Below, piece by piece: positions 7,750 through 58,955 of a stretch of 64,000 bases of DNA (position 1 is the stretch's first letter; each line of letters opens with the position of its first letter). Below the pieces are notes generated by a model. The model did no database searches. It was not told the origin of the DNA and was given only the letters and a program-made list of their open reading frames with translations. The position numbers and the translations under genes were made by a program. The stretch spans positions 19,329,503 through 19,393,502 of the forward strand of contig NC_057719.1 in NCBI RefSeq assembly GCF_004010195.1, read 5' to 3'. The DNA is from Chiloscyllium plagiosum (lineage: Eukaryota).

Positions 7750-8790
7750 TAATACATTCAAGATGACAGATAGATGATGTGCTGTGACTACAGGACATGG
7801 GAATACCTGGATGCCAGTATAATCTAGGGCAAACAGGTCTACAGTAAGTATTAGCAGCTCAAATTCTTCAACCCAGAACTTATAAGCTAAAAGCAGAGCT
7901 GTAGACACTGCACAGGGAGGTTGCTTGGGTATTTCATTTCAGGGGAAGGTCAATATCCCTTAGAGTAGGGTCTTCTGTATTGGTCAGTGGTCAGGCACAG
8001 GCACACTGAGTAAGATAAGTCAGGGCATGAAGAAAGTATGGTGGAGTAGCTTTGACCATTGCAATTGTTCAACAGGTTTGAGGTTCTTGCAGTCTTTACA
8101 GATAAAAGTAGTGGTGACAGAAGATTTGAGTAAAATGACCATGACACCATGGTAGAAGAAACCATTCTGATGGGTGGAGGAGTTAATAGGTTAGTAGTGG
8201 TAATAGTGGACAACATGGCCATGGGGACTAACATGGTTCTTTGCAGCCAAGAGTGAGGGTCCAAAAGACTGTGTTCCCTACCTAGTGCTGGGACATGCAC
8301 TCAGGCCTGGAGAGGAATTTGAAATGGATGGAGGAGGATCCAATGCCCAAAGTCCATGTTGGTACCAACAATATAGCAAGATCTCAGAAAAAGTATTCTG
8401 TCGACGAAGTATGAGCAAGCCCATCAGGTTAATTACATCCCTGAGAATTGGTTTCCAAAGTTCTCTACCACCAAGTTTAGACTGATGGGCCTGTAGTTTC
8501 TGTGTTAATCTATGGCTCCCTTCTTGAACAATGGTACAACATTGGCTGTCCTCTCGTCCTCTGGCACCTTTCCTATGGCCAGAGAGGAATTGAAAATTAA
8601 TGCTAGTGTCCATGCTTTTCCTTACTTGCCTCACTCAATAGCATTCCTGATGAAGGGCTTATGCCAAAAATGATGACTCTCCTGTTCCTCTGATGCTGTC
8701 TGACGTGCTGTGCTTTTCCAGCGCCATCCTTATTGACTCACTCATAGCATGTGATATATTTTATCTGACCCTGATGAATTATCTATTTTT
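7750..8790. mobile_element. Decayed CR1 pieces (ORF1-like + strand 7750-8420; RT - strand 8420-8790)
   Basis: Fragmentary similarity to CR1 ORF1 esterase and RT; many frameshifts. Confidence 0.5.
8645..8736 (+). mobile_element. Mini-PLE family A, degenerate hammerhead, with TSD
   Basis: CTGATGAagggcttatgccaAAAA; TSD ctcactca(a)tagcat at 8630-8644 and 8737-8750. Confidence 0.75.
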
Positions 8791-8797
8791 AAGCCTA

Positions 8798-9436
8798 CCA
8801 GACCTGTACCTCTACCAATGTCATCTACTGCATCCATTGAACCCGGTGTGGTCTCCTCTACATCGGGGAGACAGGACACCTTCTTGCAGACCATTTGAGA
8901 GAACATCTCTGGGACACCTGCACCCACCAACCCCACCGCCCCATGGCTGAACATTTCAACTCCCCCTCCGAGTCCATCAAGGACATGCAGGTCCTAGGCC
9001 TCCTCCACCGCCAAACCGTTACCACCCAACGCCTGGAGAAAAAACACCTCATATTCCGCCATGGAACCCTGCAACCACACAGGATAAATGTGGATTTCAA
9101 CAGCTTCCTCATTTCCCCATCCTGCACATTATCCTAGCCCAAAGCCTCCAATTCGGCACCGCCCTCCAGAGCTGTCCATCACTCCCCCCTCTGACCTATC
9201 ACCTTCTCCCTCACTTTCATCCACCTATCACCTTCCCAGCCACCTTCCCACCAACCCCAACCCCAACACCATCCCATTTATCTATCAGCCCGACCACAAG
9301 CCTCATTCCTGATGAAGGGCTTATGCCGGAAATGTTGACTCTCCTGCTCCTCGGATGCTGCCTGACCAGTTGTGCTTTTCCAGTAGCACACTTCCAACTC
9401 TGATCTCCAGCATCTGCAGTCCTCACTTTCCTCTCC
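8798..9436 (+). mobile_element. Penelope-like (Neptune-type) 3' fragment: GIY-YIG endonuclease + terminal repeat
   Basis: TCTSTNVIYCIH..CGLLYIGETG; ORF 8895..9137 AEHFNSP..LEKKHLIFRHGTLQPHRINVDF; hammerhead-like motif at 9309-9336. Confidence 0.9.
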
Positions 9437-10756: not shown

Positions 10757-10855
10757 TCGAGAGGGTGGTGCTGGAAAAGCACAGCCGGTCAGGCAGCATC
10801 TGAGGAACAAGAGAATCGACGTTTTGGGCATAAGCCCTTCATTAGTATTGTTTTA
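10757..10855 (-). mobile_element. Mini-PLE family A with 12-bp TSD
   Basis: TSD tagattttgcag at 10745-10756 and 10856-10867; splits the CR1 FRFCR|CDREG sequence. Confidence 0.85.
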
Positions 10856-30400: not shown

Positions 30401-32457
30401 TAACCCCCACTCCCACACCAGGCACTAGCCCCCACTCTCGCACCGGGGGAATAAACCCCACTCCCACACTGGGGCACTAACCCCCACTCCTAAAGCGGGG
30501 CACTAACCCCCACTCCCAAAGCGAGCACTAACCCCCACTCCCCCACGGTGGCACTAACTCCCACTCTCACACCGGGGCAATAACCCTCACTCCCACACCG
30601 GGCACTAACTCCAAATCCCGCACCTAGGCACTAACCCCCACTCCCATACTGTGGCAGTAGCCCCCACTCCCGCACCGGGGCACTAATCCCCACTCCCACA
30701 CAGTGGCACCATACCCCACTTGCATGACGGGGCACTAACCTCCACTCTCACACCGGGGCACTAACCTCCACTCCCACACGGGGGCACTAACCCCCACTCC
30801 CACACGGGGGCACTAACCTCCACTCCCACACTCGGGCACTAATCCCCACTCCCACACCGGGACACTGAGCCCTATTCCCACACTTGGGCACTAACCCCCA
30901 CTCCAGCACCAGCGCACTACCCCCCACTCTCACACTGGGGCACTATCACCCCACTCCCGCACCGGGAGACTAACACCCACAGCCATACTGGGGCACTAAC
31001 CCCCACTCCCACACTGGGGCACTATCCCCCACTCCCACACTGGGGCACTAACCCCCACCCCCACACTGGGGCACTAACCCCCACTCCCACACTGGGGCAC
31101 TATCTCCACTCGCACACCGGGGCACTAAATCCCACTCCCACACCGGGGCATTTACCTCCACTCCAACCGGGGCACTAACCCCTACTCCCACACCAAGGCA
31201 TTTACCCCCACTCCTACCGGGGCTCTAAACCCCAATCCCACAACAGGGCATTAACCCGCACTCCCGCACTGGGGCACTAACCCCCACTCACACACCAAGG
31301 CCCTTACCCCCACTCCTACACAGGGGCACTAAACCCCACTCCCACACCTGGGCACTAAACCCCACTCCCACATCTGGGCACTAACCCCCATTCCCACACC
31401 AGGGCACTAACCCCCACTGCCACACCGGGGCACTAACCCCTGCTCTCACACTGGGGCACTAACCCCCACTCCCACACGGGGGCACTAACTTCCACTCCCA
31501 CACCGGGACACTAAGCCCTATTCCCACACTTGGGCACTAACCCCCACTCCCGCACCAGCACTCTACCCCCCACTCTTACACTGGGGCACTATCCCCCCAC
31601 TCCCGCACCGGGACACTAACACCCACTCCCATACTGGGGCACTAACCGCCACTCCCACACTGGGGCACTTTCCCCCACTCCTGCACTGGGGCACTGACCC
31701 CCACCCCCACACTGGGGCACTAACACCCACTCTCATACTGGGGCACTATCCCCCACTCCCGCACCGGGGGAATAAACCCCATTCCTAACGCGGGGCACTA
31801 ACCCCCACTCCCAAAGTGGGCACTAACCCCCACACCGGCACTAACCCCGACTCTCACACCGGGGCAATAACCCTCACTCCCACACCGGGCACTAACTCCC
31901 AGTCCCGCACCTAGGCACTAAACCCCACTCCCATACCGTGGCAGTAGCCCCCACCCCCGCACTGGGGCATTAATCCCCACTCCCACACAGTTGCACCATA
32001 CCCCACTTGCACGCCGGGGCACTAACCTCCACTCTCACACCGGGGCNNNNNGTGGCAGTAGCCCCCACTCCCGCACCGGGGCATTAATCCCCACTCCCAC
32101 ACAGTGGCACCATACCCCACTTGCACCCCGGGGCACTAACCTTCACTCTCACACCAGGGCACTAAACCCCACTCCCACACCGGGGCATTTACCTCCACTC
32201 CAACCGGGGCACTAACCCCCACTCCCACACCAAGGCATTTACACCCACTCCTAAAGCGGGGCTCTAACCCCCACTCCCACAGCAGGGCATTAACCCACAC
32301 TCCCGCACTGGGGCACTAACCCCCACACACACCAAGGCCCTAACCCCCACTCCCACACAAGGGCCCTAACCCCCACTCCCACACCAGGGCACTAACACCC
32401 ACTCCCATACTGGGGCACTAACCCCCACTCCCACAGCAGGACACTAACCACCACTCC
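24443..32457. repeat. ~8 kb minisatellite, 26-bp unit GGGGCACTAACCCCCACTCCCACACC, with higher-order variant blocks
   Basis: Directly visible tandem array; N gaps at 25171-25970, 28129-28662 and 32047-32051. Confidence 0.98.
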
Positions 32458-33492: not shown

Positions 33493-33648
33493 TTTCTGCC
33501 CTGAATGTGAACCAAATGCTACAGGAACTTTACTTGGCAGACAACAACCTGAACAGCGTTCAGGACTCCATGTACCTGCGAGAGCTGTTGCAATCTAACT
33601 GTACCATAAGACTGTTAGACCTTAAAAACAATTGTATCTTCGACACAG
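33493..33648 (+). CDS. PPP1R37: PPP1R37-like coding exon E (VSALNVNQMLQELYLADNNLNSVQDSMYLRELLQSNCTIRLLDLKNNCIFDT-G)
   Basis: cttcccacag acceptor; AG|gtaaat donor; 156 nt, phase 1 to 1; LxxLxLxxN LRR pattern. Confidence 0.93.
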
Positions 33649-35874: not shown

Positions 35875-35987
35875 GACTGAAAGATATCTGTGAAGGTCTA
35901 AAAAGACAGAAGCAAGGTCTGAAAACACTTATACTTTGGAACAACAAACTAACACATAAAGGGATGAGTCACCTAGCTGCTATTCTA
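35875..35987 (+). CDS. PPP1R37: PPP1R37-like coding exon F (GLKDICEGLKRQKQGLKTLILWNNKLTHKGMSHLAAIL)
   Basis: ctgtttctag acceptor; gtaagt donor; 113 nt, phase 1 to 0; absent from the ORF track. Confidence 0.93.
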
Positions 35988-36289
35988 GTAAGTTTATCAT
36001 TTTAACAATAATAGTGATATTCTGTATATAGACAGCATACAATAGATCTGCTTATTGATGAGATTACTTGCTGTGTCTTAAATTTTGAACACTGAGTTTA
36101 AGTCTCAGGATTACTTGAAGCCAAAAAGAGATGTTTTGTCAAGGTGCTGTCTTTCAGATGAGATTTTGAACTGGAGCCCTGACTGCTCTCTGGTCATTTA
36201 CATCAAATTCTACATTGGTGTTTGTTCTCATGGACAAAGGGGACAATTCAAAGTACCTGAAAGCAAGCAGTAAGAGGAGGTATATAATG

Positions 36290-37255
36290 GAATTATAGTC
36301 ATACAGCATGGAAACAGACCTTTTGTTCCAACTAGTCCATGCCAACCATGTTCCAAACTAAATTACTCCCACCAGACTGTGCATGACCCATATCCATCCA
36401 AACCTTTCCTATTCATGTACTTATCCAAATGCTTTATAAATGTTGTAACTGTTCCTGCATCTGTCATTTCCTTTGGCAGTTCATTTCATGCCCCCTAGTT
36501 TTGAACTCCCCACCCTAGGAAAAAGACTTTTGCTATTCACCTAACCTATGCCCCTCATGATTTTATAAACCTCTATAAGATCACCCTTCAACCTCCAATG
36601 CTTCAATGAAAAAAGTCCCAGTCTATCCATCCTCTCCAGATAAATCAAGCCCTCTATTCCTGGCAACGTGTTGGTAAATGTTTTCTGACCACTTTGCAAT
36701 TTAATAATATCTTACCTATAGCAAGGTGACCAGAACTGCATGTAGTACTCCAGAAGAGGCCTCATCAATGTCCTGTAGAACCTCAACATGATGCTCCATT
36801 CCTATATTAAAAGATCTGAGCAATAAAGGCAAGTGTGCTAAACACCTTCTTAACCACCCTATCTAAATGTGAAGCAAAATTCAAAGAATCATGTACCTGA
36901 ATCCCTAGGTCTCTTTCTTCTACAACATTTCCTAGGGCCTTACCATTAATTGTATAAATGCTGCCCGTATTTATTTTACCAAAATGCAATACCTTGCATT
37001 TATCCAGATTAAACTCCGCCTGCCACTTCTCAGCCCATTGACCCAATTGATCAAGATCTCTTTGTAGTCTTAGAGATTCTTCTTCACTGTCCACTATATC
37101 ACCAAATTTGGTGTAATCCACAAAGTTACTAACCATGTCTCCTATATTCTCATCCAATCGTATATATAAATGACAAACAGAGGTGGACCCAACACTGATC
37201 TCTGTGGAACACTGCTGGTCACAGGTCCTTCGTCTGAAAAACAACCCTCTGTCTG
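36290..37255 (-). mobile_element. CR1/HER1 RT fragment
   Basis: ORF 36807..37259 FVDYTK..LQRDLDQLGQWAEKWQ.EFN.DKCKVLHFG..ERDLGIQV. Confidence 0.92.
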
Positions 37256-40200
37256 GCATTCCTCTTTGAAATTAGATATACTATTTTGGGCAAACCATTT
37301 TTTCCTGAGTTAATAATTTCACCAGGCTCTATCTTCGAACTTCTTAGAGCTTTTCCTTTATTTGTCCATGGAATATGGGCATCGCTGGCTAGGCTAGTCT
37401 TCTTTGTCCACCCTGAATTGCCTTGGACAAGATGGTGATGAGCTGTCTTCTTAAACTTGGGGTGTAGAGATATCTACAGTGGTGTTAAGAAGGGAGTTTG
37501 ACTCAGTATTAATGAAACAATGGACTGTAACTCCAAGTCAGGATGGTGCTCATAACAAACATAACTTAAAATAGCAAAGTAACAAATGTATTATAGAAGA
37601 AACACTGGACTCAGACACTGGTTGAGAAAAGAGTTAAGGCAAGTGACCAAAGCTGATTTGAGAGGGTGGTTTTCATGAACATCTTTGAAGGCAGGAACAG
37701 TTGAAATCAAGGGAAAGGGTGTTTCAGAAGGGTTGGTGGAGATATATTGTGATTCAGTTGGGATAGAGGAAGCTTGAACATTCTGGAAGTGGGTATGGCA
37801 AAGCCAGGAGTTTTACAGCTGTAGACAAGGGGTTTAAAGGGAATGTTTTGCAGAATAGTGATATCAATGGAGGGCAGTGAAAAGAGAGGTGATATTTGAG
37901 TGAGATCTATGTGAAAGAGGATTTGTTCAATGTCACATGACAAAGTAACAGGGATCTTTCTGAAAAAGAAAAGAACATGCATTGTAATAAGTTTCTGAAA
38001 ATCCTGGCAGGAATATGTCCTGAGTTATACTGTCAAAGCAGCAATTTGGAAGTAATTCAATAGATCATGGTGAAGAACCAGAGTGTTTTGCCAAATGGAT
38101 AAAATATGATAGCCCAAATGGTCGTCCTCATCCATATTTATATTATGATTATATAAATTGAGAACATTCATTCTAAGTGTTGGTTAAACAGCAAGCTGGA
38201 CTTTTCCTCAGTAAAGTAGCAACTGTGTCTGGAAATAAAGCTGTCTTCCAGAGTCTAATTTAACTTCAGGCTCATAAATACTTGCGTTTTATTCATTCAG
38301 AGTTGTTTCATTGCTGGATGTTCCTCAATGAACCACAAGTTGTGTCATTCTAATCTTTCAATATTACTTCAAATAATCTGAGTTTTCTTTTGACATTAGC
38401 TGCCAGTTTCAAACAATATTAGCTTGCTTTGTCAATATTTGCAGATGTTTCCTTATGTCTTGCATTGAACCAGTGTGAAAATAAATAATACAGAACAAAG
38501 CACTTTGAAAATTAAGAATGGCCACAAAATTTCTGTAAGTTATTAATTAATGGCACCCATCTTTAACTAAACTTGACCTTGCCCTCCATTTAGCTTAAAG
38601 CTGCAAGTGTGAGATGGAAACATTGCAGGCCCCTTGACAGGACATCAGGAATTTAAGTTTATTGGGCAAGCACACCTGAAGTATTTCCTTAACTAGTCAT
38701 ATTGTGGTTTTGTAGGAAAGGGGAATTTGTTGTCAAATAAGATGCAGAAATAAATTGATGAGAGGGAAAGACAGACAAGATTTAAAAGAGAAAACAAAAG
38801 GGACAGAAAGTAGTTCGCAACTAATTTTCAGAGTTTGATCAGTAGTAGTGAACATTTACATTTTGGGAAACAGGCACTGAGACTTGAGAAAAACGACTTT
38901 AACTTTCTGCGGCAAGTTTCCTTTGTGCTTACTGTGCAATTACAGGAACTTTGCAGCATTCATTGCATTTGAGACAGTGGGCAGGTTGCATTTTCGCCAA
39001 GCTAATGGGGAAGTGTTTCTTTGCCAACAACAAACTCTTCACTTCCAGGTTTAATCATGCATCTGTTTTCTTCTGAAGTTGTTGAGACATTTGCATTTAA
39101 ATAATGCTGCCAGCTATTCATTCTACCATTATTTTGACAGCAATGTTTGGGCCGTTGATTCAGAAGTGTAGTTTCAACAGGATTGCCAACAATCAATTTG
39201 CATTATTTGCTTTTTAATAAACCCCAAAATCTGTCAAAGGAATGATTTTGCTTACTTATATTTCTCCTTAATGATTGAAATATTTAGCTGCATTTTTCTT
39301 CATGAAATTCTGCAGTATTTATTCGATACACTTGTATTCATAAACTGTTTATCTCGTCCTACATGCTTGTGTGTTTCAGCACTGATTCGCTCCAAGTCTA
39401 ACTAGGATCAAAATCAACAGAAAGACAAGAAAAATGAAGCACAATCAAATGTCAATATGTTCATTCTTTAAATTTTTGAACTAATTTGTTTCATTTCCTT
39501 TATGAATAATTGGACACATACTGATATTCCAATGCCAGTTCTGTGGATTGTACATACTAGTTTGATCTGCCCATTCACTACAGCCTGATTGATTAATCAC
39601 ACAACCTGCTTGTTTGCAAAAATAAAGCCTCTGGTTCTGACCTCATGCAATTAAACAGTAAGTACTGTAATTTTGGTGATATCGCCACTGCCAAAAAGTA
39701 ACACATCAACGATATATTGGAAGACCCCCTGCTGCTATTCGACATTCATGTAGAATCTCTGACAGTATCCGCTCCCCAGCTAAAAATATTCATTGATAAG
39801 GTAAAAACGACCATGTAATCTGACAATACATAAGGTGGAAGGGAGACAGATTAAAGACCCAGTACTGATTTTTTTTTAACATTAAATTGCAAGGCTTGCA
39901 CATGGAAACACAAAATAAGAGCAGCCCTCTTCCGTGCGGGTGCCATTTCCCTGTGAAGATTTTGATTAAATAATACATGCCTCATATAAAAGCGTCAAAG
40001 GCCAACCTTGTACTATGTGATTAGGAGAGATAAGCAGACATTCTTAAAGCTGTGATTATTGTAATTAGCTCGCAGTGTCAATTGAGTTCAAACGATGACA
40101 CTTGTAAAGTGTTACCAAGGCATTTATTATCCTTATAAACAGTTATGCCTCCTGCTTCTAATGCAAGAGCCAGACAAGGTTTCTTGTATTATTAAAGAAT

Positions 40201-40852
40201 CCTTTTTTAAAGCAAGGATATATTTATTTCATATCATTTTTTTCTCATAATGTTTCTTCAGTCTTAATAGGGCCTGAAAGGACTCGCCCCAATCTGTTTG
40301 CATGATTGATATTAACCTTAATATCTCGCCTACATGTGTGAAATTTAGAAAGCTCTTAACAACAATAAGAATGCATTAAAGGTAAAAGTCTGATAAAAGT
40401 CAAAAAGTAATGAAAAATATCAGTACAGTTTGTTGCACTTGAGGACAGCTAGAAGATGAAAAATAGTTGCATTTGTTTAGCAGACTAATTCGTTGGCTGT
40501 TGCAGACAAATCATTGTCATTTGGTGGAGCTAAAAGAAGATAGAAATGACTTGTGCTGAATGGTCAGTTGCATGTCCAGCATTTTGACAGTAAGAATGTG
40601 ATCTATGACAAAGATTGCTCTGGATCCTAAGTTCAGATTCCCAGTTGCAATATATATACGAATGTGTTGAACAAGAATAGTTCCTACCAACATGTAATTT
40701 GCTCCCTTTAGACTATCAGGTATATAGTAACTTGAATTTTTAAGTTTTTGTTTGCATTTACTCTGTTTCAAGAGAAGAAAAATATCTCTTTCCTCTGGTT
40801 GACAGCTGTGTAAGTCATCGTGAAGGAAATAAAGAAAAAAAAGAGGACACAA

Positions 40853-42080
40853 TCACCTTGACTATGTATCCTCACATCCTGCTTCCTGTAAAAACCTGAT
40901 TCCATTTTCCCAGTTCCTCCATCGCTGTTGCATCTGTCCTGATGATGCTAACTTCAACGACGGAGCTTCCGAAATGTCCACCTTCTTCCTCAATTGAGGA
41001 TTCCCCAGCACTATAGTTGACAGCTGGGTCTGACCCATTTCCCACACTTCAACCCTCACCCTCTCTTTTCCTCCCCATAATAATGAAAGAGTTGCACCAT
41101 CCCACCTGCATCCAGATCCAGAGGATCATTAGCCACTATCACCATCACTTCCAGTGGGATACCACCAGCAGACACATATTCTACCCCTTCCCTTGTCAGC
41201 TTTTCTTTGGAACCATTCCTTTCAGGACACCCTGGACTACTTATCCTTCATTGCCAACATCCCCCACAACACCTTCCTCTGATCAGTTTGGTGTCAACTA
41301 CACAGGGTTCAATTTCTCTTCTCAATGCAGCTACCAAGTTCACTTCCTCCCTCCTCAGTATCCCAGGGCTCAAAATTACCTTCCAGGTGATGTAGCACTT
41401 TATCCGCACTTGTCACAATCTAGTCTACTGCATTCGCTGCTCACAATGTGGTCTCCTCTGCATTGTGGAAATGAAACATAGACTGAGTGATTGCTTTGCA
41501 GAACATCCAAGTTCTGTCTCAAAAAATGGCCCTGAGCTTACAGATCCTTGCCACTTCGATACACCATTGTGTTCCCTGGCCAACATCTCTGTCTCAGGCT
41601 TGCTGCAGTGCTTCAGTGAAGCTTGCTATAAGCTGGAAGAACAGCACCTCTCTTTCCTCTCTGAACTCTACAGCCTTCTGGACTCAATAGCAAATTCAAC
41701 AATTTTAGGGCTTGAGGCACTGTCTCCCACGCCCTTACCCAACACACACACACGTCACTAGGCATTGTTATCATATGGTCTGCTATTACACACAATCCCA
41801 TTATTCGCCATAAGTAGTCCCTATTAATAGTTATTCATTGTCCTAGGCTGACCATAGTCCACTCCTTTTTCTGTCCAACTGTTCCTCTATCACTTTGGGC
41901 TTTATCATTCACTTCTTCCCCCCCTCACCACCACCTATCTTCTGCACAAAAAAAACTAACATTTCCCTTGCTACCATCAGTACTGAGGAAGGGTCACTGG
42001 ACCTGAAACGTTAACTCTGATTCCTGTCCACAGTTACTATCAGACCCACTGAACTTTTCCAGCAACTTCTATTTCTGTTT
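40853..42080 (+). mobile_element. Penelope-like (Neptune-type, family B): RT thumb, GIY-YIG and terminal repeat
   Basis: LDYVSSHPASCKNLIPFSQFL; LVYCIRCSQCGLLC..; KLEEQHL.F. Confidence 0.9.
41979..42016 (+). ncRNA. Minimal type I hammerhead ribozyme motif (PLE family B)
   Basis: agta-CTGAGGA-a-gggtc-actg-gacct-GAAAC-GTT-aact; core intact, one mismatch closing stem I. Confidence 0.7.
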
Positions 42081-42270
42081 GTTAAAAAAGAGAAATTTCT
42101 TTATACAGAATTGTTTGAACATGTTACAAAGAACATGTGACTGGGATTCCCTTGCAACTTTCGAATAAAGCAGAAAATACAGAGCTCATACAAGAGAGCA
42201 TGGTTTTGTGATTAGTTTAAAATTCAATAGCAAAGTAGTGCAGGAAGGTAGTATCCCTAGTTATGATGAG

Positions 42271-42580
42271 ATTAGATTACCTACAGTGTGGAAACAGGCC
42301 CTTTGGCCCAACAAGTCCACACCGACCCTCCGAAGAGAAACCCACCCCCTATATTTACCCCTGACTAATCCACCTAACACTACGGGCAATTTAACGTGGC
42401 CAATTCACCTAACCTGCAGATCTTAGGACTGTGGGAGGAAACCGGAGCACCCGGAAAAAAACACACAGACACGGGGAGAATGTGCAAACTCCACACAGAC
42501 AGTTGCCCGAGGCGGGAATTGAACCCGGGTCCCTGGTGCTGTGAGACAGCAGTGTTAACTACTGAGCCACCATGCCGCCC
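42271..42580 (-). mobile_element. HE1 / V-SINE, full length
   Basis: Reverse complement homologous to 7048-7346. Confidence 0.9.
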
Positions 42581-42789
42581 TGACTTTGGATCCATGTTGC
42601 ACTGAGGAACCTGATGGCCAAGGAAGATACATTCATAATGTGGACAAACCATCGAGTATAAACTTGTAAATCTTTTCCACATGTGCTAATAGCATAATTA
42701 AGAGTGGCAGGGATTTGTGGTCAACTATATGACAGAAAGAAAGGTGGGGCCTCTAGCATCACTATTCATTGCTACACGCTACCTCTTGC

Positions 42790-42875
42790 ACTGCTCAGAA
42801 TGTGGTCTCCTCTACATTGGGGAAACGAAACAAAGACGAGGTGATTGCTTTGCAGAACACCTGTGTTCTATTCCA
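42790..42875 (+). mobile_element. Short PLE GIY-YIG fragment
   Basis: HCSECGLLYIGETKQRRGDCFAEH in ORF 42717..42926. Confidence 0.8.
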
Positions 42876-43159
42876 AAAAAGGTATATTGCCACAGCAACT
42901 TCGATTCCTTGAGTGGCCAGTGTTGATCAGTTTGGTGTCAACTACACAGGGTTCAATTTCTCTTCTGGGGTAGGTTTCAGACTCAATGCAGCTACCAAGG
43001 TCCCCTTCATTATGGGGTCCCCAGCAGCCTGACATGGGACATTAATTTCATAGAAGTTGCCGTTCCAGTATATATTTTTGTGGTGGCCAGTAAGACATCT
43101 CCTTCATTCAAGACTAAAACATTGCCTTTAGAGGGAGGCAATGGAGGCTTAAGTTAGGA

Positions 43160-44620
43160 AGAGAGAAACACAGGAAATGAAAGCAGAGTAGGTTGTTCAG
43201 ACCATTAAGCCCCCACTGCCAATCAACAGAATCACAGCTAATCCTCCATCTCAATGCCATACATCACCTTTCTTCCCAGAAAGGTATCTATTTCTTAAAT
43301 ACCTTCAGTGATTCAGCATCTACAGCCCTTCTGTGGGAGGGGATTTTATGTATTCACCACTGTCAAAGTGAAGCAATTTCTCCTCATATCAGATCAAAAT
43401 GGCTTACTGCACACCCTGAGATTATGACTCTTTGTTCTGGATTCCACCCCAGTCAGGGGAAACATCATTCCTGCATCAAATTCATAAAGCCAGAATTTTA
43501 TGTTTCAATAAAAACCCCTCTAATTCTTCTAAGATCCAGTGACCTGATTTCTCCTCTAATGATAAATCTGCCATCCCTGGAAACAGTCTGGTGAGCCTTT
43601 GCTGTATTCCCTGTATGGAAGTGCATCTTCTCTTAGTTAGGGATTCGAAACTGCACACAATACTACACGTGTGGTCTCAACTTGGACAGTACAGTTCCTG
43701 TGTGACTGTTCTCAAACCCTCTTGTAATGAAGAACAACGCTTCACTTGTTTTCTGAATTTTTTGCAGCACATATATGCCTGCTTTCAGTGACAGGTGTAC
43801 AAGGACACCCAGTTCCCTTTTTATGTCAATACTTCCCAATCTATTACCATTTAAGTAACACAGCTGTCATTCTTCCGATAGAAGTAGCTAACTTCTTCCA
43901 AATCATGCTAGAGAGAGAGGGAGGTAGTGAAGAGAGAGAGATGGCTGGTGGTGATTTAACCTGAGAGTCACACTGCCTCAGCTGAGGGGAGAGATTGACT
44001 TCTCCATGGTAACCTCAACCACTGCTAGAACTGAGCACATGTTGTTGACGTCACTCTGTGTTGTGAGCCAACTGTCCAGCTAACTGAGCTAACTAACTGA
44101 GGAGCAGGAGAGTCCGTGTTTCGAGCATAAACGCTTCATCAGGAATGAAGGTCTATGACCTATCCTAAGAAAGTAACTCAGGTGAAGAGCGCTCCTGATG
44201 AAGAGCTTATACTCAAAAAGTCGACTCTCCTGCTCTTCAGGTGCTGCCTGACCGGTTGGGCTTTTACAGCACCACATTTTTTGATTCTGATCTCCAGCAT
44301 CTGCAGTCCTCACTTTCTCCCTGAGCTAACTAACTCCCTATATTACATATTACAAATATTTGTCCACTCATTCAAATTACTATCTTGACACTTCTTTACT
44401 TCCTCCTCACCTCTTAACATACACAATTCCACTTAGTTTTGTGTAATCAGCAAACTTGAAAATAATACATTTGATTTCCATATGCAAACCATTGATCCAT
44501 ATTGAGAATAGCTGGTGTCTAAGCGCTGATCACTGCAATATCTCAGTTGTCACCACCTTCCACTCTATGAAAAACCCATTTATTCCTACCTTCTGTTTCC
44601 TCTCTGCTCAGCAACTCTCA
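43160..44620 (-). mobile_element. CR1 fragment containing a tRNA-SINE (43905-44098, -) and a mini-PLE
   Basis: CR1 3' similarity either side; the SINE matches 51687-51890 and 23130-23250. Confidence 0.75.
44099..44320. mobile_element. Fold-back mini-PLE family A with perfect 15-bp TSD
   Basis: TSD ctgagctaactaact at 44084-44098 and 44321-44335; two opposed CTGATGA hammerhead remnants. Confidence 0.88.
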
Positions 44621-46522
44621 TGTTCCATTCCTGAGAGTGCAGCAGAAGGCCTCAGAATTGGACTGAGACTCTGGAGTCTATTAGGTGCTGTGTCAGCAGG
44701 AATCTATCTGTTACAAACATGGCCCATGATATTAGCTGGACTTAGGTTGAAGGAGAAAATTGCAAGGTTGGAAACTTCCTTACCCACCTTGCCTCAATAA
44801 TTCTGAGGGGCAGTTCCGGTGGGGTATAATAAAACTTACTGACCTGCTCAGCAACCTAGGTGGAGTCCCAACATGGAACCTCGACCTGGTTACTGGAGGC
44901 AAGGATCTAGTAGCTGGAAGAGATATGGCATCAGGAATGAAGGTCTGTGAGCCATTCTAAGAAAATAATGCAGGTGAAGAGCATTGGACACCCCAGTGCC
45001 ATCTCACCAAATCTCCTTAGTCTCATGGGCTCCCAAGATTATCATTGTGTTGCGAGTTCTCGCCAGGTTCATGCTAATGAGGAACCTTCCCTATGATCCA
45101 ATAGATCCTGTTGGAGAGTCTTGGCATTTAGGGGAAAAGCCCATCAATTTGTGGGCTCTGTGAGTTGGAACTGCTTCTGGGTTCAGAACTTGCAACTCAT
45201 TGAGTAGGAGACACTCCTTGGAATTTCATCAAGAACACCCCTTTATTTGGCATGGAGATAGGTTCTCTGTGCAGTTAAGTGCAGCACATAGGCACTCGCA
45301 GTTGGAGGCTAATCAGAGACGTCTTCAGTTTTCAGGAAGGGACTGACTATAACTAATGGTAACTGTAAAGGTGCTTTATCTTGGAGGTCTCCCCTCCACA
45401 ATCTCCTTAAATTGTCTCTGAAAGTGAAGCAAATTGAGCTAGGTCACGATTGTGTTCCATTTCGTTGTCTACATTTGTCTTTGAGATATTATGTTAAAAG
45501 TATCCTTGCAAAAGAAGCATACTTAACCATGATGCTACTGTTATTGTTGCCCTGATCTGATTCTGTCCACCTCATTGCTCCTTTAACCCTGTCCAACAAT
45601 CTCCTCATCCCACCCCACTACCACCACCACTTTTCTCTGGATTTGGAAAAACGCTGAAATGTTAACATTAATACAACTGTCTATGTACCTGTTTCACAAC
45701 TGCTGAACACCCCAACTTGCACATGTCTGAATTAGAGATGATCCCCCTTCAGATTTTTCACAGGTGTAACTCTATGTTTAAGTTCAAATGTAAGGTCTCT
45801 CAGGCGACGTTTACTTATATCTAAGTTTGCAGCACTGTGTTTTCCTGTTTGTATAATTAGCACGCTTACAGTGCTCCGCGAGTGATGATCACATGCAGCA
45901 GATGTGCTCAATTAAGACTTTATGAGAATTTGTTTAACAAATAAGTCAAATAACGAGCGAAAGGGAATGAAACATTGTTTTCCATCAGCTGGAATATGGC
46001 ACATTATTACTTTAATGGAAGCCTTCTGAGAGTTTTTCTTTTCTTACTTGCCAAAAGTTGTGAACAGCTTCTGTCTGAATTTGGAATAAGCTCCTCAGGC
46101 TAGGCACTACAAAAGTAAATCTGCCCTGGAATGTCTGCTGCTTCTTAGTTGATCCTACCACTCACAGTCAACGAAAAGCCAGATGGAACTATTGTTCTGA
46201 CCTGCAGACTCACTAGATTGAGTTCTGAATGGACTTAACCTTTTTTTACTTAATAGCAATTAAAAGTAATTAAACATTTAATCTCTAAAATACAAAATTT
46301 AACCTCAGCAGCAGAATAGTACATTTTTCTTAAACTCTGTGTAAATGGGTGGATGATTTAAAATTTCACTCAGCGTGTTACACATTGGAAGCTTCTATTT
46401 TTTTTAGAGAGCATATCATCACAGTTAGGAGAAAGTGAGGTCTGCAGATGCTGGAGATCAGAGCTGAAAATGTGTTGCTGGAAAAGCGCAGCAGGTCAGG
46501 CAGCATCCAAGAAACAGGAGAA

Positions 46523-46554
46523 TCGACGTTTCGGGCATAAGCCCTTCTTCAGGA
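46523..46554 (-). ncRNA. Minimal type I hammerhead ribozyme motif, intact core
   Basis: tc-CTGAAGA-a-gggc-ttat-gccc-GAAAC-GTC-ga. Confidence 0.75.
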
Positions 46555-46560
46555 ATGGCT

Positions 46561-46592
46561 TCCTGAAGACGGGCTTATGCCCGAAACGTCGA
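46561..46592 (+). ncRNA. Minimal type I hammerhead ribozyme motif, intact core
   Basis: tc-CTGAAGA-c-gggc-ttat-gccc-GAAAC-GTC-ga. Confidence 0.75.
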
Positions 46593-47426
46593 TTCTCCTG
46601 TTCCCTGGATGCTGCCTGACCTGCTACGCTTTTCCAGCAACACATTTTCAGCTATCATCACGGTTACACAATATATTACCAGTACAGAACCAATATTATT
46701 TTCTTGAATTTGTAAGTTATTTATGCTTTGCTTTAGATATCATACCATTGCATATTCAAATTTTGGTCTCATCAAATAAAATGTATGAAAAGATAGTTAA
46801 TGATTTCCAACCTACAGAAAAAAAATTAAAGCATCAGCAAAAAATGATCTAATTGGTTCATTTATCTCTTGGAAAAAGAGTCAAGGTGACCTAAGATTAA
46901 AATTATGAATGATTTTCATAAAAAAAGATAGGGTGATTGCACTTATTGAAGAGTGAAACCAAAAGAATAGAATTGTTAGTAAGAAATTATGTAAAGAAAT
47001 CAGAAGACATTTCTATCCTCAGATAGTGATGAAAATGCAGATTTTGTTACAACACTGAGTGAAATTTGGAACTGACATGTGGTAACTAAGTATCTGTAGG
47101 TTATTATATATTAAAACCATCACATACTGTATTCAGCTTCTTGGTGGCAAGAACTTTAGAGTGACTAAGAAGACAAAAACAGGAAATATGTCTTGCCCTA
47201 ATTGCTACTGTTTTTCTTTCATAAGAAAGTCATTTTGAAATGAGTTAAGGTCTTTTGGTGAATCAAGTCCTCTGCTTCTACATTCTATGGAAAACTATCC
47301 TAGTGAACCAAAATCCGTGTACAGTTTATCTAAATTCTAAATGAGGTGAGAGGTGTTGCTGGAGATACTCTTGAATTACAATTAAATGCTCTTTAATGTG
47401 TTACACATCCAACTATTATAATGAAT

Positions 47427-47597
47427 TGGAGGTGCCGGTGGTGCACTGGGGTGGACAAAGTTAAAAATCACACTACACCACGTTATCATCCAACAGGTTT
47501 ATTTGGAAGCACTAGCTTTCAAAGAAGCAGCAGTGCTCCAAAAGCTAGTGCTTCCAAATAAACCTGTTGGACTATGATCTGGTGCTGTGTGATTTTT
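47427..47597. mobile_element. Fold-back mini-element, PLE-derived family D
   Basis: Perfect 31-bp inverted repeat 47489-47519 / 47541-47571 within ~60-bp arms; 16-bp TSD aactattataatgaat at 47411-47426 and 47598-47613. Confidence 0.85.
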
Positions 47598-47874
47598 AAC
47601 TATTATAATGAATCAGAGAGGCTTTAATTGGAAGCTTTAATAATCCTAGCTATTTATTGAATTAAAATCAGAAAGAGAATACTCATGTTTTAATGTCTTA
47701 TGATCATCACTGCAGTAATGCTAAACGTAAAGGGTCTTTTAGCTAATAATCAGGCAAACCAGACCAAATATATCACAGACAGCACTGAGTTGAATGACTT
47801 TTGGCTGTTATTTTGAGTCAAAGTAGCTCCCTGTTACTTGATTTTTAAATTGATCTGAATTAGACAACCAGCAA

Positions 47875-48004
47875 TAAAGACAGAAAGTGCTGGACAAACT
47901 CAATACTTTTAGCAGTATCTGTTATTGTTTTGAGTGCCGTGAGTTTCTCCAGCACTTTCTGTCTTAATTTCAGATCTCCAGCATCGGCTGTTCTTTGTTT
48001 TAGT
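47875..48004. mobile_element. Fold-back mini-PLE remnant
   Basis: Arms aagacagaaagtgctgga / tccagcactttctgtctt; TSD ttagacaa(c/t)cagcaa at 47860-47874 and 48005-48019. Confidence 0.8.
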
Positions 48005-48654
48005 TTAGACAATCAGCAACTCTGTTTAATATTTCATCTGAAGGATGGCACCTCTGACATAAGGTTGCAATAAATTCATTGTTGCACCTGCATTATGCAT
48101 TAGCAATCCTAATATAGGTCTCCAACTCCTGACTTTCTGTCTCTGAAGCAGGATTCTACTAACTGTGAAAAACTGAGATACTGTACTTACCACAAAGTTT
48201 TTTGTGCCATTCAGGAGCTCTGGATGTGATCAGTGTTTGTTCACGCAGAAGATTGCAATCAAGAACATTGGACTCCAATAAATACAAATTGAAAAAAATT
48301 TGCTTTGAATTGTGGAAATCTTAATCTGAAGCCAAGTAGTGATATTATTGCTGAAGTATGTAAGAAGTAGAGTGATTGATCTTTCCCTGCACTGAAGCAG
48401 TGAAACTGTTGCACTGCAAACCAGCAGCATTTGAGCCTTTTGAAGGAGCTGGAATTGACATCTTTGCATTGCAGGAGTGAGCTCCCAGCCTGATCTATGC
48501 ATTCCACTCCCGCCTGTCGTGCTCCACATTGAATGCATGGCTGTGGATGAGAATGGGAGTAGAATGTATTCTGCCTGGAACTGTGGAAGCAGCTAATAGT
48601 GATGGTGAGGTGTATTTTAATGAAACCTTTGTCATCAGTAGCCTCACCAATAGC

Positions 48655-48815
48655 AAGTCCAAAGATGTGCAGGTTTGGTGAATTGGCCGTGCTAAATTGC
48701 CCATAGTGTTAGGTGCATTTGTGAGAGGGAAATAGGACTGGGTGGGTTACTCTTCGGAGGGTCAGTGTGAACTTATTGGGCTGAAAGGCCTGTTTCCATG
48801 CTGTAGGGAATCTAA
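48655..48815 (+). mobile_element. 5'-truncated HE1 SINE
   Basis: Matches the 3' half of 7048-7346. Confidence 0.85.
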
Positions 48816-49779
48816 AAAAAAAATAAATTTATGAAGCAAACTTCATATCCCTGACCATCCACAGCGAAAGAAGATACTTATGAACTTTTGTCTTGTAGCC
48901 AAATACAGAGTAAGATTCCATAAGTAGCAATGAGATAGCCAGCTAGTCAATGTCATTTGTGTTAGTTGAAGGACAAATGTTGGTTAAGACAGCACCTTTT
49001 TCTTTTTCATCCAAACACAATGAGATCTTTTTATACATATTTGAACAGATACGGAGCCAACATGGAAACAAAAAGCCAAATGGCCACCTTCTGCCCTGAA
49101 ATTACAAATCTGTGATGTTTTAAGGATGATACCTATGCAGCATAAGATTCCCTCAGTACTGTGTTACTTGCTGTGGCCTCAGGAACAATTGCCTAACTTA
49201 ATGATGAGTGTTATGAGTGAGCCAAGATCAATAGCGTTACACTAGCTGTGTAACATAACCCTTTCAAGAATCCCAGCAAGTACTAGTTCACTAGTTATTC
49301 AAGAAGGATTAAACAAATGGCACTCCAGTGTATCTTACTGATAGAACACTCTTCCAGTCTGTTTGACAGTTTATGGCTAGCATGATGATTAACAATTGTA
49401 TTCAGTTTAGGAAGAAACTTTCACTGATGAAAAGCTTCATTCTATGTCATCATTGTAATTATTCTTGAGCAACGCCTGGTGAGGATGAGATATCCTCTAA
49501 TTCACAAATTGCCATATTTGCTTATCAACTTGTACTGCTCTACAGTTAGCCTTGCAAAAATGACTTAATGGCCCGTTAAACCCATTGCAGAAAGTTAAGA
49601 TTAGTACTTAGCAATGTAAGAACCTTTCTGATGAGGTGATTTAGGTTCCAGCAATACCAGTCTACCTATACATGTAAATTGGGAATCATTTGAACTGTGG
49701 GATCTCATGCTAACAGATCCCAATTTTTTCCAGAGATTATTGAAATTTAAAATATGTGTTTTTTTTAAAATTACTTACT

Positions 49780-50020
49780 CTTCACCAAGAGAATGGTAAT
49801 CCTCAGAAACTCTCCCTCACAAAACATAGTTGAAGCCAAAATATTGAATATTTTCAAGAAGGAGTTAGATTTTGTGCTTAAGGCTAAAGAGATCAAAGAG
49901 TATGGGAAGAAAGTGTGAACAGGGTACTGAGATGGATGATCAGCCATCATCATATTGAATGGTGGAACAGGCTCAAAGAGCTGAATGGCCTTCTCTTGCT
50001 CTTATTTTCGATGTTTCTTT
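49780..50020 (+). mobile_element. CR1 3' end
   Basis: Similar to 4220-4470. Confidence 0.75.
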
Positions 50021-51429
50021 CCATCTTCCTTTCCATCTTTCTCAATCTTGTCTTTCATTTCTTTTTCTCTCTTTCTGGACTTCATTTGACTTGACTTCAT
50101 CATCTTCCTCCATCAGGCAATTAAAAAAAAATTCTCATTGTTTATGGAGATAGACATTGAATCCACCATCCACCAAGGCCCATGAAGACCCGTTGTTCTC
50201 ATTGCATTACCACCAGCTCACACTTTTCAGATAATAAAACTGAAGGATGAGGGGAAATGTTCAATAATTGGGTGTGTAGACTCCAGTAACTTTGGACTGA
50301 TATTGTGTTGATATGACAGATAAGCATCCTGAGAAGACACTATGTCCGGAATGTTAACAGAGTGCTGATGGTTCTGCGTTGTGTTTCCAGAATTTTCTGG
50401 TTTCATTTTAATTTCCAGCATTTGCAGTTTCTTTTTGATATATTTCATCAAGCACGCTCTGTTTATAGTGGAAGGGATGGTTTTATGAGTCTCCACCACA
50501 GGCGGGCGAGGGCACCTGCTGGTACTAAGGACTGCTAAAATTGCCCCAAGGATATAACAGGAGGAAATGAGGTTTTAAGCCTTGAAGGGGGTTATGTGAC
50601 TAAAATAAATACTGTGTCATTCAGCAGGAGCTATGATAAAGTCCAACGTCTTCCCCTGGCATATATAACGTAAATGTTGGAATGTTTTGAATCAGTAACT
50701 ATTTGATTGTTTCTAGTCTTCCGATTCCAGCTAAATTTCTGAATCTCCAGCCCAGCTTTCAGAAGTTAAGCACTCAAAACAGGCTGTAAATCTGACTAAA
50801 CGTTGCTCGCAAAAGCAAAATATTCCACATGTACCAGTTTAATGCAAATTAGATGCCTGTAATTAGTTCTAGAGTGGTAATTTAGTGCACAAAAATAATT
50901 ATTCAAAACCTCTTTTTTCCAATTAATGCCCAAGACAGAAAAGTCTGGTTTACCCTTCTCCCCCTCCCTAAAGAAAACAAAAACACTGTGCTAATGTATC
51001 ATTATATCATCTAAACAAACTTCTAAATAGCCAGGCTGTAAAGAAAATAATGTAAGCTGCATTCCGTCTGAAATAGTTCTCCTTAAGAGTTACTGAGCGA
51101 GAAGGACATTGTGGTATGTAGGTTTCACATTGGTTATTTACCTTTTGCTAGTGTATTTTCATGTTTGTTACATTGGTGTGTGGTAGACGAAGGGATTTTC
51201 CAAAGTTTTTCTTGAATTTGGCCATGGGAAACAAACTGGCAGGATTACTTTTAACACTTCAATATTCTCAAACCAAAGTTTCACATGATAAGACAACTCC
51301 AGATAAAGGTTATGGCCCCCTCAATGGCTAAGGAATCACATTACTCACAAAACAAGCACAGTATTCCCAGTACCTGAAGCTCTGTGCCAGCAGTCTGGAA
51401 GATAGTACAAGATAATGTGTGAAATGTTA

Positions 51430-52095
51430 TCAGCTGTGACTCAGTTGGTAGCTCACTCATCTCTGAATTAGAGGCTAGTGTGTTTAAATCCTACTCGAGA
51501 AACTCAAGCAAAGAATGTAGGCACAGTGTTCAATGGAGTACTGATACATGCTGCTTTGTTGGTGTGGTCTTTCAGATGAAAAGTCCAAGCAAAGCTCCAC
51601 TGCCTGCTCGGGCAAATGTTATATATTCCTATGTACTATTTTGAAAAAGGAGAGGGAAACAACACTCACTTTCCTCCCAATATATAAACATAAACTCACC
51701 ATCATCACATAGGGCTGCTCCTTCATTAGAGAGAGGTGATTGGTGGTAGTTTAAGCTGAGGGTCACCACACTTCAGGCAAGGGGCAAGGTTGAGAAGGAG
51801 AGTCCTTCGTGGTAACCTCACTTAGTGCTGGAATTGAACTTACACCTTGCCTTCATGCTGCATCACAAACCAGCTGAGCTAATCAATCAATCATGAATTG
51901 GTTGATATAAGCTGTATTAGCCAATATATATCCCCCAACTATATCACTAAAACATTATCACATTTGCCAATTGTGGGGGCTCAAGGTGTGTAAATGAGCT
52001 GCTCTGTTCCTTACATCAGAACAGTGGCTACAGTTCAAAAGTGTTTCATTCATTAAATATGCTCATGAAAGGTATTATTTAAATGTAAGCCTTTG
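51430..52095 (+). mobile_element. Deu-SINE interrupted by a minus-strand tRNA-SINE (51687-51920)
   Basis: tRNA-like head tgactcagttggtagc; Deu-like core gtctttcagatgaaa; TSD ccaatatata at 51677-51686 and 51921-51930. Confidence 0.75.
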
Positions 52096-53726
52096 CTCAG
52101 CGGATAATACAAGCAATAATGGACCAAGCTAGCTATTGTTATGGACAGAAGGTGTCTTCATTAGTTCCACATTCACCAAAGTATAAGAACTATGGTTAGA
52201 GATCGTGATCAGTGAGTTCATGGTGTAGTGATTTACATGGATAAGGATGTTGAGGGTGACTTCTGTTATCCTTCATGAACTGGTTGATATAAGTTGTGTT
52301 AGTGGTTTAAAGAATAACATGACTGCATTAGGGAGTGAAAATAGGAAAATGTCTTACTTGCTATCCAGTGTACCTGACAGAGAAGCCTTAATGTATAGAC
52401 ATTGACTGAGGAGAAGATTGTGCTCAGTGGTGTTGTCCTCCACTGTTGATCTCTACCATTTGTTATCCATGCTCAAGCATGACCTGGCTGAGGTAACAGA
52501 GGCTGAAGGTGGAAGAGAAATTGAACAGGTCTCACAGCATCTGTGGAAAGGGAAACAGAGTTAACATTTCAAGACCAATGTTCAGGTTCCAAAGAAGAGC
52601 CATTGGATCTTTGTTTTACTCTCCGCACAGATGCTCCAGACCGACTTTAGCTTTAAATTATGGTGTTAATGGAGACAACTGGCACCTGGGAAACTATACC
52701 CCCGCTTGAATATATATATTATATTTATAAAATGTATATGAAACTGTACCCGCCTTCAGGAGAAGAAAATAGGAGAATTGGGGGTTGAGTAAAAGATTTA
52801 TTTTAAATGAGCCACTGCCTCCACTAAAATGTCAAGCATGTATTTCAGATGAATACATCTTGCGTTCACACCTTTTTAATTCACAAAGTAATTTGGTTTT
52901 GAACTGAATCCTTCAAATGATATTTGGGTGTTTGTGTCAAAACAGCCCGGATGACATGAAAAAGATAGCTGGGAGGAGTTGCCAGGCCTGACAGTAAGAG
53001 GGGGCGAATTGGCATAACAGAACTACAGTGTACTCAGAGGGAGGTTTGATTTTGTTGTTTGTTATATGCTGTAAGCAGAGTTGTTTTGTTCGTGTTGAGA
53101 CAATAATAACTGAAGTGTTGTCTCCTGTAGTGAGGTCTTTACCTGATGTTACATGTTTCATAAGCTTGTTTGTGCAGAAGTGATTCCCAGCCTGAGGCAC
53201 TGGGTAAATCTCATTCTCACCGCACTCTTCCGCTGTAGTTTGCAATATGGATTTTAAACAAAACTTGTAAACTTCCAACTGTGCACGTATAGGATTTTTC
53301 TGGACTTCAAGGTTTTGCTGACTGTTTGTTCCCCCTTGCTCCCTCCCTCCTCGTTATATGGACAGGAGTCAGAGATTTCCCTCCTGGGCTAAAGCAGAGT
53401 TTTTGAAATTTTCACTTTACTGGTCGATTCAGTGACGAACTAGTGCAGTACCTGATTTCTACCATTAAGTGCTGTCAGTGAGCTATGTAAACAGTTTGGC
53501 AGCTCCCAAAGGCAGAAACTGTCAGAACACTTTGCAGAATTAATGTTTAAGACATTTTTCTCACAGTTATGATGTAGCCCAAAGCAACAGCAATACTTTT
53601 TAACACTACCTGACCTGCTGAGTACTTTCATACCAATGAAGACCATAGATCTGACTTTATCATTAGCACTTGTGTCCGATAGAAAGTATGGCACAGTTTT
53701 AATACTCTTCATTGTTTTCCTTTCAG

Positions 53727-53868
53727 CCTAAATTAACTTGTCTGGAGACACTGAATTTAGGTCATAATCCATTGAACAATGAAGGAATCCATAGACTTAA
53801 AGAAGCATTGATAGCTAATCGATCAGTCATTCGTCTAGGGCTGGTGTCAACAGCAATAACTTGTGAAG
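53727..53868 (+). CDS. PPP1R37: PPP1R37-like coding exon G (PKLTCLETLNLGHNPLNNEGIHRLKEALIANRSVIRLGLVSTAITCE-G)
   Basis: ttttcctttcag acceptor; AG|gtaata donor; 142 nt, phase 0 to 1; within ORF 53712..53936. Confidence 0.94.
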
Positions 53869-58101: not shown

Positions 58102-58268
58102 GTGCAGTAGCCACTGCTGAGTTTATAGTGGAGAGTGCTGGGATTCTAAGACTGGATCTACGAAGGAATAGAATTAGGACTGGAGGTCTGATGGCCCTAT
58201 CTCTCGCACTGAGACTAAATCATTCATTGGTCAGACTGGATTTGGACAAGGAACCAATGGGTGAGACA
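58102..58268 (+). CDS. PPP1R37: PPP1R37-like coding exon H (GAVATAEFIVESAGILRLDLRRNRIRTGGLMALSLALRLNHSLVRLDLDKEPMGET)
   Basis: tatctag acceptor; gtaagt donor; 167 nt, phase 1 to 0; within ORF 58065..58298. Confidence 0.94.
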
Positions 58269-58867
58269 GTAAGTAGGCAAGGGTTGGTCAGCGAGTAACT
58301 GCTTTAGGTGAACTATTACTTTTGCAAATTCACTCAGCATACTTGTCTTCACAGTGGCTTGAATAACAATATCTTTATGCCACCCGGATAAAGGAGAGAG
58401 TGAGACTAATTATGTGATGAAAGCTTTGCCAAAATTGAAATAGCTCACAGCATATTGGTAAAATTCCTAATGAGCTGCAAAGATAAAGATGCCTATAAAA
58501 TATGATATGGCCTTTGAAGAAGTTACTGTTGTATTAAATCTCTTCTTTCTGCCAATTGCATCTCTTCTCACAGCATTGGAATCGTGCTGGGCACATTTCA
58601 AGAGATACCAATTGGACACAAACTGTTTTGTCATAAACGCTGAATGGCAAACCATTCATTTTCTTAACTGACAGGCACTTTTGTGCACTCCAGCTGGGGT
58701 CTATCAACTGAGGTACCTTTTTACAGTCAAGGTAGGGTTTTGTGCAGTGGTAGCATCTCTATCTCTGAGCTTGGGGGCCTGGGTTCAAGGTCAACTCACC
58801 CTGGCGATGTGTCATACCATGTCTGAGCAAGTTACTTGAAAATTATTAGACCCTGGGCCAGGAGATG

Positions 58868-58955
58868 GAAATGTGTTGCTGGAAAAGCGCAGCAGGTCAG
58901 GCAACATCTAGGGAACAGGAGAATCGATGTTTCGGGCATTAGCCCTTCTTCAGGA
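58868..58955 (-). mobile_element. Mini-PLE family A with hammerhead motif
   Basis: tcCTGAAGAagggctaatgcccGAAACATCgattc; flanked by cctgggcc(a/t)gg repeats. Confidence 0.8.

Follow-up and report, generated by a model that had tools for sequence, protein, structure and literature searches.

A fold-back insertion in Chiloscyllium plagiosum is very probably a head-to-head pair of hammerhead-bearing leaders from a Penelope-like element

Introduction

Is a palindromic insertion that carries a hammerhead ribozyme motif on each strand a mobile unit in its own right, or a by-product formed when another element inserts? The question is raised by a 225-nt intronic insertion (46428-46652) in the window, by which we mean the whole 64,000-nt stretch of Chiloscyllium plagiosum DNA analysed here (contig NC_057719.1, positions 19,329,503 to 19,393,502, forward strand). 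A first-pass annotation of this DNA had read the insertion as a young, non-autonomous, retrozyme-like unit mobilised by the machinery of a Penelope-like element (PLE). Our analysis supports the PLE origin and disfavours the unit: the insertion very probably joins, head to head, two short stretches copied from the 5' leader of an autonomous PLE, a leader that bears the hammerhead. A single integration event likely produced it, and it has likely been immobile since. A head-to-head arrangement of pseudo-LTRs (pLTRs) is already published for PLEs, with inverted pLTRs, tail and target-site duplication described in PMC3846280 and PMC8557442.

Results

Structure of the insertion

The insertion is built as a hairpin. 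Its 94-nt arms (46462-46555 and 46560-46653) are complementary at 90 of 94 positions by sequence comparison, and they enclose a 4-nt loop and carry one hammerhead motif per strand, as the first-pass annotation had described. The features are given below in window coordinates; distances from the motif are counted from the hammerhead C3 (position 0), with predicted cleavage between +27 and +28.

35988..53726, + strand: predicted 17.7-kb phase-0 intron of a leucine-rich-repeat (LRR) gene, lying between AG/GT-bounded, phase-compatible LRR exons 35875-35987 and 53727-53868
46414..46427, + strand: left target-site duplication, 14 nt, 13/14 identical to 46653-46666
46428..46461, - strand: 34-nt PLE tail, on the left arm only, equal to +91 to +124 from C3
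46462..46555, - strand: left arm, PLE 5' leader or pseudo-LTR, whose native sequence runs into the loop to -5
46519..46557, - strand: minimal type I hammerhead motif of the left arm (motif scan), C3 at 46552, predicted cleavage 46525/46524
46556..46559, no strand: loop or arm junction, 4 nt, with a 34-nt junction context that has 21 exact genomic occurrences
46559..46596, + strand: minimal type I hammerhead motif of the right arm, in host-gene sense, C3 at 46563, predicted cleavage 46590/46591
46560..46653, + strand: right arm, a second leader copy without tail, whose last base also lies in the duplication
46653..46666, + strand: right target-site duplication, 13/14 identical to the left one

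The two arms share the motif CTGAAGA-n-GGGC-TTAT-GCCC-GAAACGTC. The element is asymmetric, with the 34-nt extension present on one side only, and base 46653 is common to the right arm and the right duplication. The arms differ from each other at 4 of 94 positions and the duplications at 1 of 14; the 14-bp duplication of the earlier annotation does flank the insertion as an imperfect repeat, and the description 'young' holds loosely only. Private mutations are present in both arms. The RNA fold of the hairpin reaches -183.6 kcal/mol (z -24 against 200 shuffles). By eye, the leader also contains, at 46617-46638 (+) and in its mirror, a branch-point-like word, a pyrimidine run and CAG, resembling a 3' splice site.

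An intronic position and the sense orientation of one ribozyme in a + strand host gene, in keeping with the host pre-mRNA of the earlier annotation, are supported by predicted LRR exons on that strand (33493-33648, 35875-35987, 53727-53868 and ~58102-58270). The encoded protein presumably resembles PPP1R37. Since the host gene lies on the + strand, the sense ribozyme is the weaker right-arm motif, transcribed after its complement. Elsewhere in the window, positions 24443-32457 hold a GC-rich tandem array of a 26-nt unit; N gaps divide it into three blocks, which together contain more than 250 copies.

The hammerhead motifs

The motif scan identified the core CUGANGA / GAAA / UH with G10.1-C11.1, and an ACGU helix III palindrome in both arms, in agreement with the minimal type I hammerhead of the first-pass annotation. 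Its phrase 'intact hammerhead ribozyme cores' stands for the cores themselves, while stem I is marginal on both arms: the left arm offers C-G, U-A, U.U and A-U (3/4 pairs) and the right arm only C-G and U-A (2 pairs), both short of the helix I of 4-5 bp expected for a minimal type I hammerhead. Four perfect stem I pairs are found in one sister subfamily (copies L038, L087 and L102).

To place these motifs in the genome we used an unselected sample of 100 evenly spaced 10-kb stretches (961,675 bases), in which the minimal descriptor found 59 matches, with 0, 0 and 1 in three shuffles. These matches fall into four motif families, one of which has AGCU as its helix III palindrome, and the stems differ among families yet still pair. 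The three further minimal hammerhead families have other stems I and II, with AGCU or ACGU (for example L039:1560-1606, L078:2492-2543 and L090:6942-6993). Within the family, stem II was 100% paired with a variable loop and 0 compensatory changes among 12 distinct descriptor matches, which were picked by hand and are biased to pairing.

In the folded locus, the pairing probability of stem II was 0.0 on both strands, nascent transcript included, and stem II is accordingly predicted never to form in the hairpin. This prediction supports the earlier proposal that the sense ribozyme is sequestered in double-stranded RNA. The accompanying idea of cleavage as a dimer is inapplicable in cis, as each strand has a single sense motif.

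Rfam hammerhead families gave 0 matches at gathering score in the whole window; at E<=10, the 17 matches in 46300-46800 were all miRNA or sRNA hairpin models below gathering, with no hammerhead among them. We read this blank as models missing minimal motifs, not as absence of the motif. Two other readings of the region near -4 were ruled out: a type III hammerhead with its cut at -4, for which no stem-loop I is possible, and a splice acceptor, for which there is no AG. Lunse et al. 2016 reportedly belongs with the work on metazoan PLE minimal type I hammerheads.

The metazoan PLE min-HHRs described in PMC4209133 resemble the present motifs in CUGANGA, an additional nucleotide ahead of stem II, G10.1-C11.1, GAAA and a palindromic 15.2-16.2. 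They differ in stem II, which has 7-8 bp in the Schistosoma motifs and 4 bp here, and in stem I, which here has 2-3 pairs with a U.U mismatch, unlike the motifs reported there. According to the same source, the min-HHR cleaved weakly and only as a dimer or trimer, and Schistosoma carries dual min-HHRs on opposite strands, 100-700 bp apart.

The parent element

The arm is the 5' leader, or pseudo-LTR, of an autonomous PLE with a reverse transcriptase (RT) and a GIY-YIG domain. In copy L144, a GIY-YIG sequence with a C-x4-C-x2-C motif lies directly upstream of an arm 94.5% identical to the long arm, and in copy L136 an RT lies directly upstream of an arm of the same 94.5% identity (Pfam below cut-off in each case); a copy of a sister subfamily (L044) contains RVT_1 at E 1e-7, above the Pfam cut-off. 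The linker motif, seen in L144 and L044, appears to be of the Neptune/Nematis type; a Zn-finger-like linker motif between RT and EN marks these two clades (PMC8557442). A PDB search with the element's RT returned 0 matches.

The pseudo-LTR of the arm was found in two settings, downstream (3') of the RT/GIY-YIG coding sequence and upstream (5') of the ORF start. Natively the tail is followed by ~40 nt and then the ORF start codon, with 862 pattern matches for leader-to-ORF-start joins, so the ribozyme and tail lie inside the 5' leader. Long insertions that include ORF sequence, some with kilobases of the element, have the same ends as the fold-back, one tailed and one tail-less. These observations support the earlier attribution of the insertion to PLE machinery, the arms being pLTRs of an RT/GIY-YIG element.

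Other leader copies in the window are found at 2349-2477, 8644-8722, 9306-9430, 10765-10840, 15109-15757 and 58862-58955, and the copy at 15109-15757 retains decayed GIY-YIG coding sequence upstream.

A genome-wide population of fold-backs

The exact 26-mer of the hammerhead motif has 44,149 genomic copies, and at least 7,273 pairs lie head to head with exact stem II arms no more than 30 nt apart. After removal of 8 of 159 matches as another family, 62 of the 151 arms in the unselected sample belonged to 31 short fold-backs, a density of 32 per Mb that extrapolates to ~1e5 genome-wide. All 31 junction strings were different, and 21 of the 31 fold-backs had a duplication score of at least 8. 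Among best-match loci the score reached at least 10 at 29 of 30, and duplications around pairs were mostly 12-16 nt long.

Across copies, the long arms reach +124 and the short ones stop around +75 to +99; in the insertion studied here the tailed arm ends at +124 and the tail-less arm ~34 nt earlier, near +90. Tail-less arms were also found solo, with duplications of their own. In the first 50 listed of the at least 7,273 sites, the junction types seen most often coincide with microhomologies of 2-3 nt, and one type accounts for 9 of these 50 (counted by reading).

Of 30 best-match copies, 29 have the same base in both arms at the main subfamily site; the exception is the present insertion, and the arms of L015 and L024 disagree at a second site. 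These three disagreements indicate that both arms need not share one template, a point that weighs against our preferred reading.

Further arrangements of the same family were noted. An older, diverged inverted pair lies in the same predicted intron (44084-44335); its arms are 47 nt apart and its duplication measures 15 nt. Copy L126:1841-1992 is an arm without tail, and the sequences on its two sides are reverse complements of each other (~25 nt, by eye), as if host DNA had folded back. Six copies (L195, L198, L201, L209, L210 and L214) contain a leader with 40-100 nt of ORF start and then another leader, which starts around -3 to -9; a cDNA that jumped further down the RNA from its 5' stop would leave this arrangement. 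Direct tandem units of ~205-224 bp, comprising ribozyme, tail and ORF start, occur at L196/L197 (G000:C1 ~26,522,000) and at G000:C2:96929337-96929815.

Copied unit or insertion by-product

The exact junction of the insertion occurs in 21 genomic copies, itself included. Relative to this asymmetric junction, the tail lies on one side in 10 copies and on the other in 9, with 2 unclear. Lineage variants match between the arms of one copy and differ among copies (for example L263, L264, L265, L269, L273 and L280), short-arm ends vary, and most copies have their own 11-16-nt duplication. As the junction is asymmetric, copying as a whole unit would hold the tail on one side; a tail on either side in several lineages therefore means that the same junction arose repeatedly. 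Each of these same-junction fold-backs was likely made anew at insertion.

The alternative that fares best, which we nevertheless consider unlikely, is that a single cDNA snapped back, or an antisense RNA primed itself, and that the second arm was copied from the first, stopping 34 nt short. The arms usually have variants in common, a near-palindrome spans -3..+7, and short snap-back-like inserts are found at junctions. Self-priming on an antisense template is also the explanation of junction palindromes proposed by Arkhipova et al. 2013 (PMC3846280), which counts against our preferred reading. Yet the pure form of this process fixes which arm bears the tail, and the repeated origin of one junction with the tail on either side argues against it, as do the tail-less arms found alone with their own duplications.

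Still less probable is the unit itself, a non-autonomous hairpin of retrozyme or SINE type that is transcribed and that PLE RT then inserts elsewhere in one piece. Over the full 225 nt, all 40 scored candidates are 95-100% matches, but they had been ranked by likeness to this very sequence. Identical junctions do recur in the genome, and unit copying could also yield the frequent recurrence of some junction types; moreover, a pLTR of a PLE can serve as the cis-acting sequence through which mobilisation in trans takes place (PMC3846280). The occurrence of the same junction in both orientations and in several lineages largely refutes unit copying, and we reject the retrozyme reading on the repeated origin of this junction. 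The 31 distinct junctions of the unselected sample and the long ORF-bearing insertions with shared ends likewise leave the retrozyme-like unit of the first-pass annotation unsupported.

The definition of retrozymes leads to the same conclusion. Non-LTR retrozymes consist of tandem direct repeats in which two or more ribozymes follow one another on the same strand (bioRxiv 10.64898/2026.07.22.740005). They resemble the fold-back in being non-coding, derived from PLE pLTRs and equipped with a type I hammerhead, and they differ from it in being direct repeats, the fold-back being an inverted pair. The insertion contains no tandem direct repeats and has one motif per strand, with stem II unpaired in the predicted fold; nor does its family behave as something copied as a unit, given the differing junctions and the two tail orientations. 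The tandem units at L196/L197 and G000:C2:96929337-96929815, whose ribozymes lie on the same strand, fit the retrozyme definition better than the fold-back does.

Co-option of the hairpin as a regulatory dsRNA or ribozyme switch of the host gene is very improbable. It would suit an intronic position, a sense ribozyme motif and a very stable duplex; against it, the hairpin is one among the many similar fold-backs extrapolated above, both of its arms have private mutations, stem I is weakened, and the intron already contains an older fold-back. The self-silencing switch suggested in the first-pass annotation is unsupported at this locus, and the hairpin is a candidate ADAR or Dicer substrate. 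An assembly artefact is barely credible: inverted PLE structures do trouble short-read assemblies (PMC8557442) and many long copies in this genome have N gaps, but the palindrome has unique flanks with a duplication, 4 arm differences and zero N, thousands of like structures have their own duplications, and 9 raw family RNA reads (8 starts) join opposite strands at the expected place, +7/-4, where template switching in the library is possible.

A sharp 5' stop at the ribozyme edge

Exact copies counted from C3 number 44,403, of which 26,522 continue natively to -4, 13,467 to -8 and 11,128 to -12 (the last pattern having two degenerate places and being one base shorter at its 3' end). Retention per 4-nt upstream step is thus 0.60, 0.51 and 0.83. 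In 30 consecutive copies, breaks fell at -1 to -6 in 23, at -7 to -33 in 0 and further up in 7; an inverted arm lay just upstream in 15 of the 30, and in two cases a single insertion contributes both of its arms to the 30. Automatic breakpoints in the unselected sample were noisy: for non-fold-back arms the -7..-1 bin is inflated by subfamilies whose upstream sequence is other than that of the reference, and 21 of these 89 arms, which adjoined N, lay at an edge or extended beyond the reference, were left out of the histogram. The 5' hotspot is therefore based on the extension counts and the 30 consecutive copies. At the cleavage site (+25 to +32), only 5 of 130 arms of the unselected sample start.

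In the RNA reads, 2,058 family reads fall on the native leader in single-cell run X19, 95% of them running into other sequence, and 0 in X20. Among these X19 reads we found no pile-up of read starts or ends on the native leader. Depth on the ORF side is 4-11 (family reads, X19). A>G differences in these reads pool thousands of genomic copies and are not evidence of editing. Independent contigs have loose ends at -3/-4, where RNA depth drops from 241/174 to 91/57; the drop stems from inserted copies and does not mark a start site.

The word at -6..0 (TCATTCC, A at -4) fits what we take to be the initiator consensus. The sharp stop 1-6 nt upstream of the core is suggestive of run-off at the RNA 5' end, although an RT pause site or a microhomology bias could give the same pattern. 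Run-off is the preferred cause because of this initiator-like word and of the Inr-like words present in other pLTRs (PMC2377424, PMC3846280).

Discussion

We propose that the fold-back arises when two short cDNAs of one PLE leader meet at the target. The PLE protein would nick both target strands ~14 nt apart, the staggered nicks giving the duplication. Both target 3' ends would then prime reverse transcription at two internal start sites that bound the tail, one cDNA beginning at +124 and the other near +90, and both would stop near the 5' edge of the hammerhead. Their 3' ends may anneal by microhomology, followed by fill-in; in the present copy, annealing would have come after a few nucleotides of snap-back copying. 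In the host pre-mRNA the hairpin would form a 94-bp duplex, with the ribozyme predicted to be unfolded.

Several of these steps have counterparts in PAc, a Poseidon PLE of Anolis (PMC11167929), for which both target strands are cut and extended, two RT start sites bound the tail, a dimer is predicted and ribozyme cleavage is dispensable for insertion. The two start sites match both arm ends here, cutting and extension of both strands is as we propose, and the dispensable cleavage is consistent with the few copies that start at the cleavage site. The present element differs from PAc in its C-x4-C-x2-C linker of Neptune/Nematis type, and the parts of that source consulted here describe for PAc neither a joining of two cDNAs nor a stop at the ribozyme 5' edge.

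In EN+ PLE insertions (A. vaga Pen2a, PMC3846280; PMC8557442; D. virilis, PMC2377424), the available accounts likewise describe head-to-head inverted pLTRs, a palindromic junction and a target-site duplication, together with a one-sided 30-40-nt tail, a hammerhead in the pLTR, a pLTR or tail adjoining the ORF start and an Inr-like word in the pLTR. The D. virilis element has a 34-bp repeat and inverted termini (PMC2377424). Unlike canonical EN+ PLE insertions, both arms here are reduced to the leader and lack the ORF, the fold-backs are very many (at least 7,273 exact) and their duplications mostly measure 12-16 nt. The ORF begins ~40 nt past the tail here and inside the pLTR in the canonical elements (PMC3846280, PMC8557442, PMC2377424).

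The proposed mechanism also recalls the 5' inversions of L1. L1 twin priming produces such inversions when the second target strand primes a second cDNA, with microhomology at the junction and an inverted piece that comes from upstream RNA. The priming of a second cDNA by the second strand and the junction microhomology are alike in the two cases; the inverted piece is not, as both cDNAs here cover the same 95 nt.

A wider reading, which we hold tentatively and with less than even confidence, is that the fold-backs are fossil 'strong-stop' intermediates of PLE retrotransposition. The RNA would start at the initiator-like word, a protein dimer would prime on both target strands at the two sites that bound the tail, close to the RNA 5' end, and both cDNAs would run off the template, whose 5' end would not be set by the ribozyme cut. 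Run-off cDNAs might then anneal to each other, giving a fold-back, or to the target, giving a solo copy, and a jump of the cDNA to the 3' part of the RNA would give a long copy flanked by pseudo-LTRs. In listings of the open literature we found no account of a stop at the ribozyme edge or of twin priming in PLEs.

Taken singly, the insertion is of little weight, being one among thousands with a published architecture. The population matters more, as the start and stop points of PLE RT are recorded in one genome by recent junctions that number in the tens of thousands, and both PMC8557442 and PMC11167929 list the insertion mechanism of PLEs among the open questions. For an existing in vitro system, testable predictions follow from the abrupt stop at the 5' edge of the ribozyme and from junctions that occur in both orientations to the tail. 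For the genome itself, the extrapolated ~1e5 ready-made hairpins of 80-100 bp may be a large source of dsRNA.
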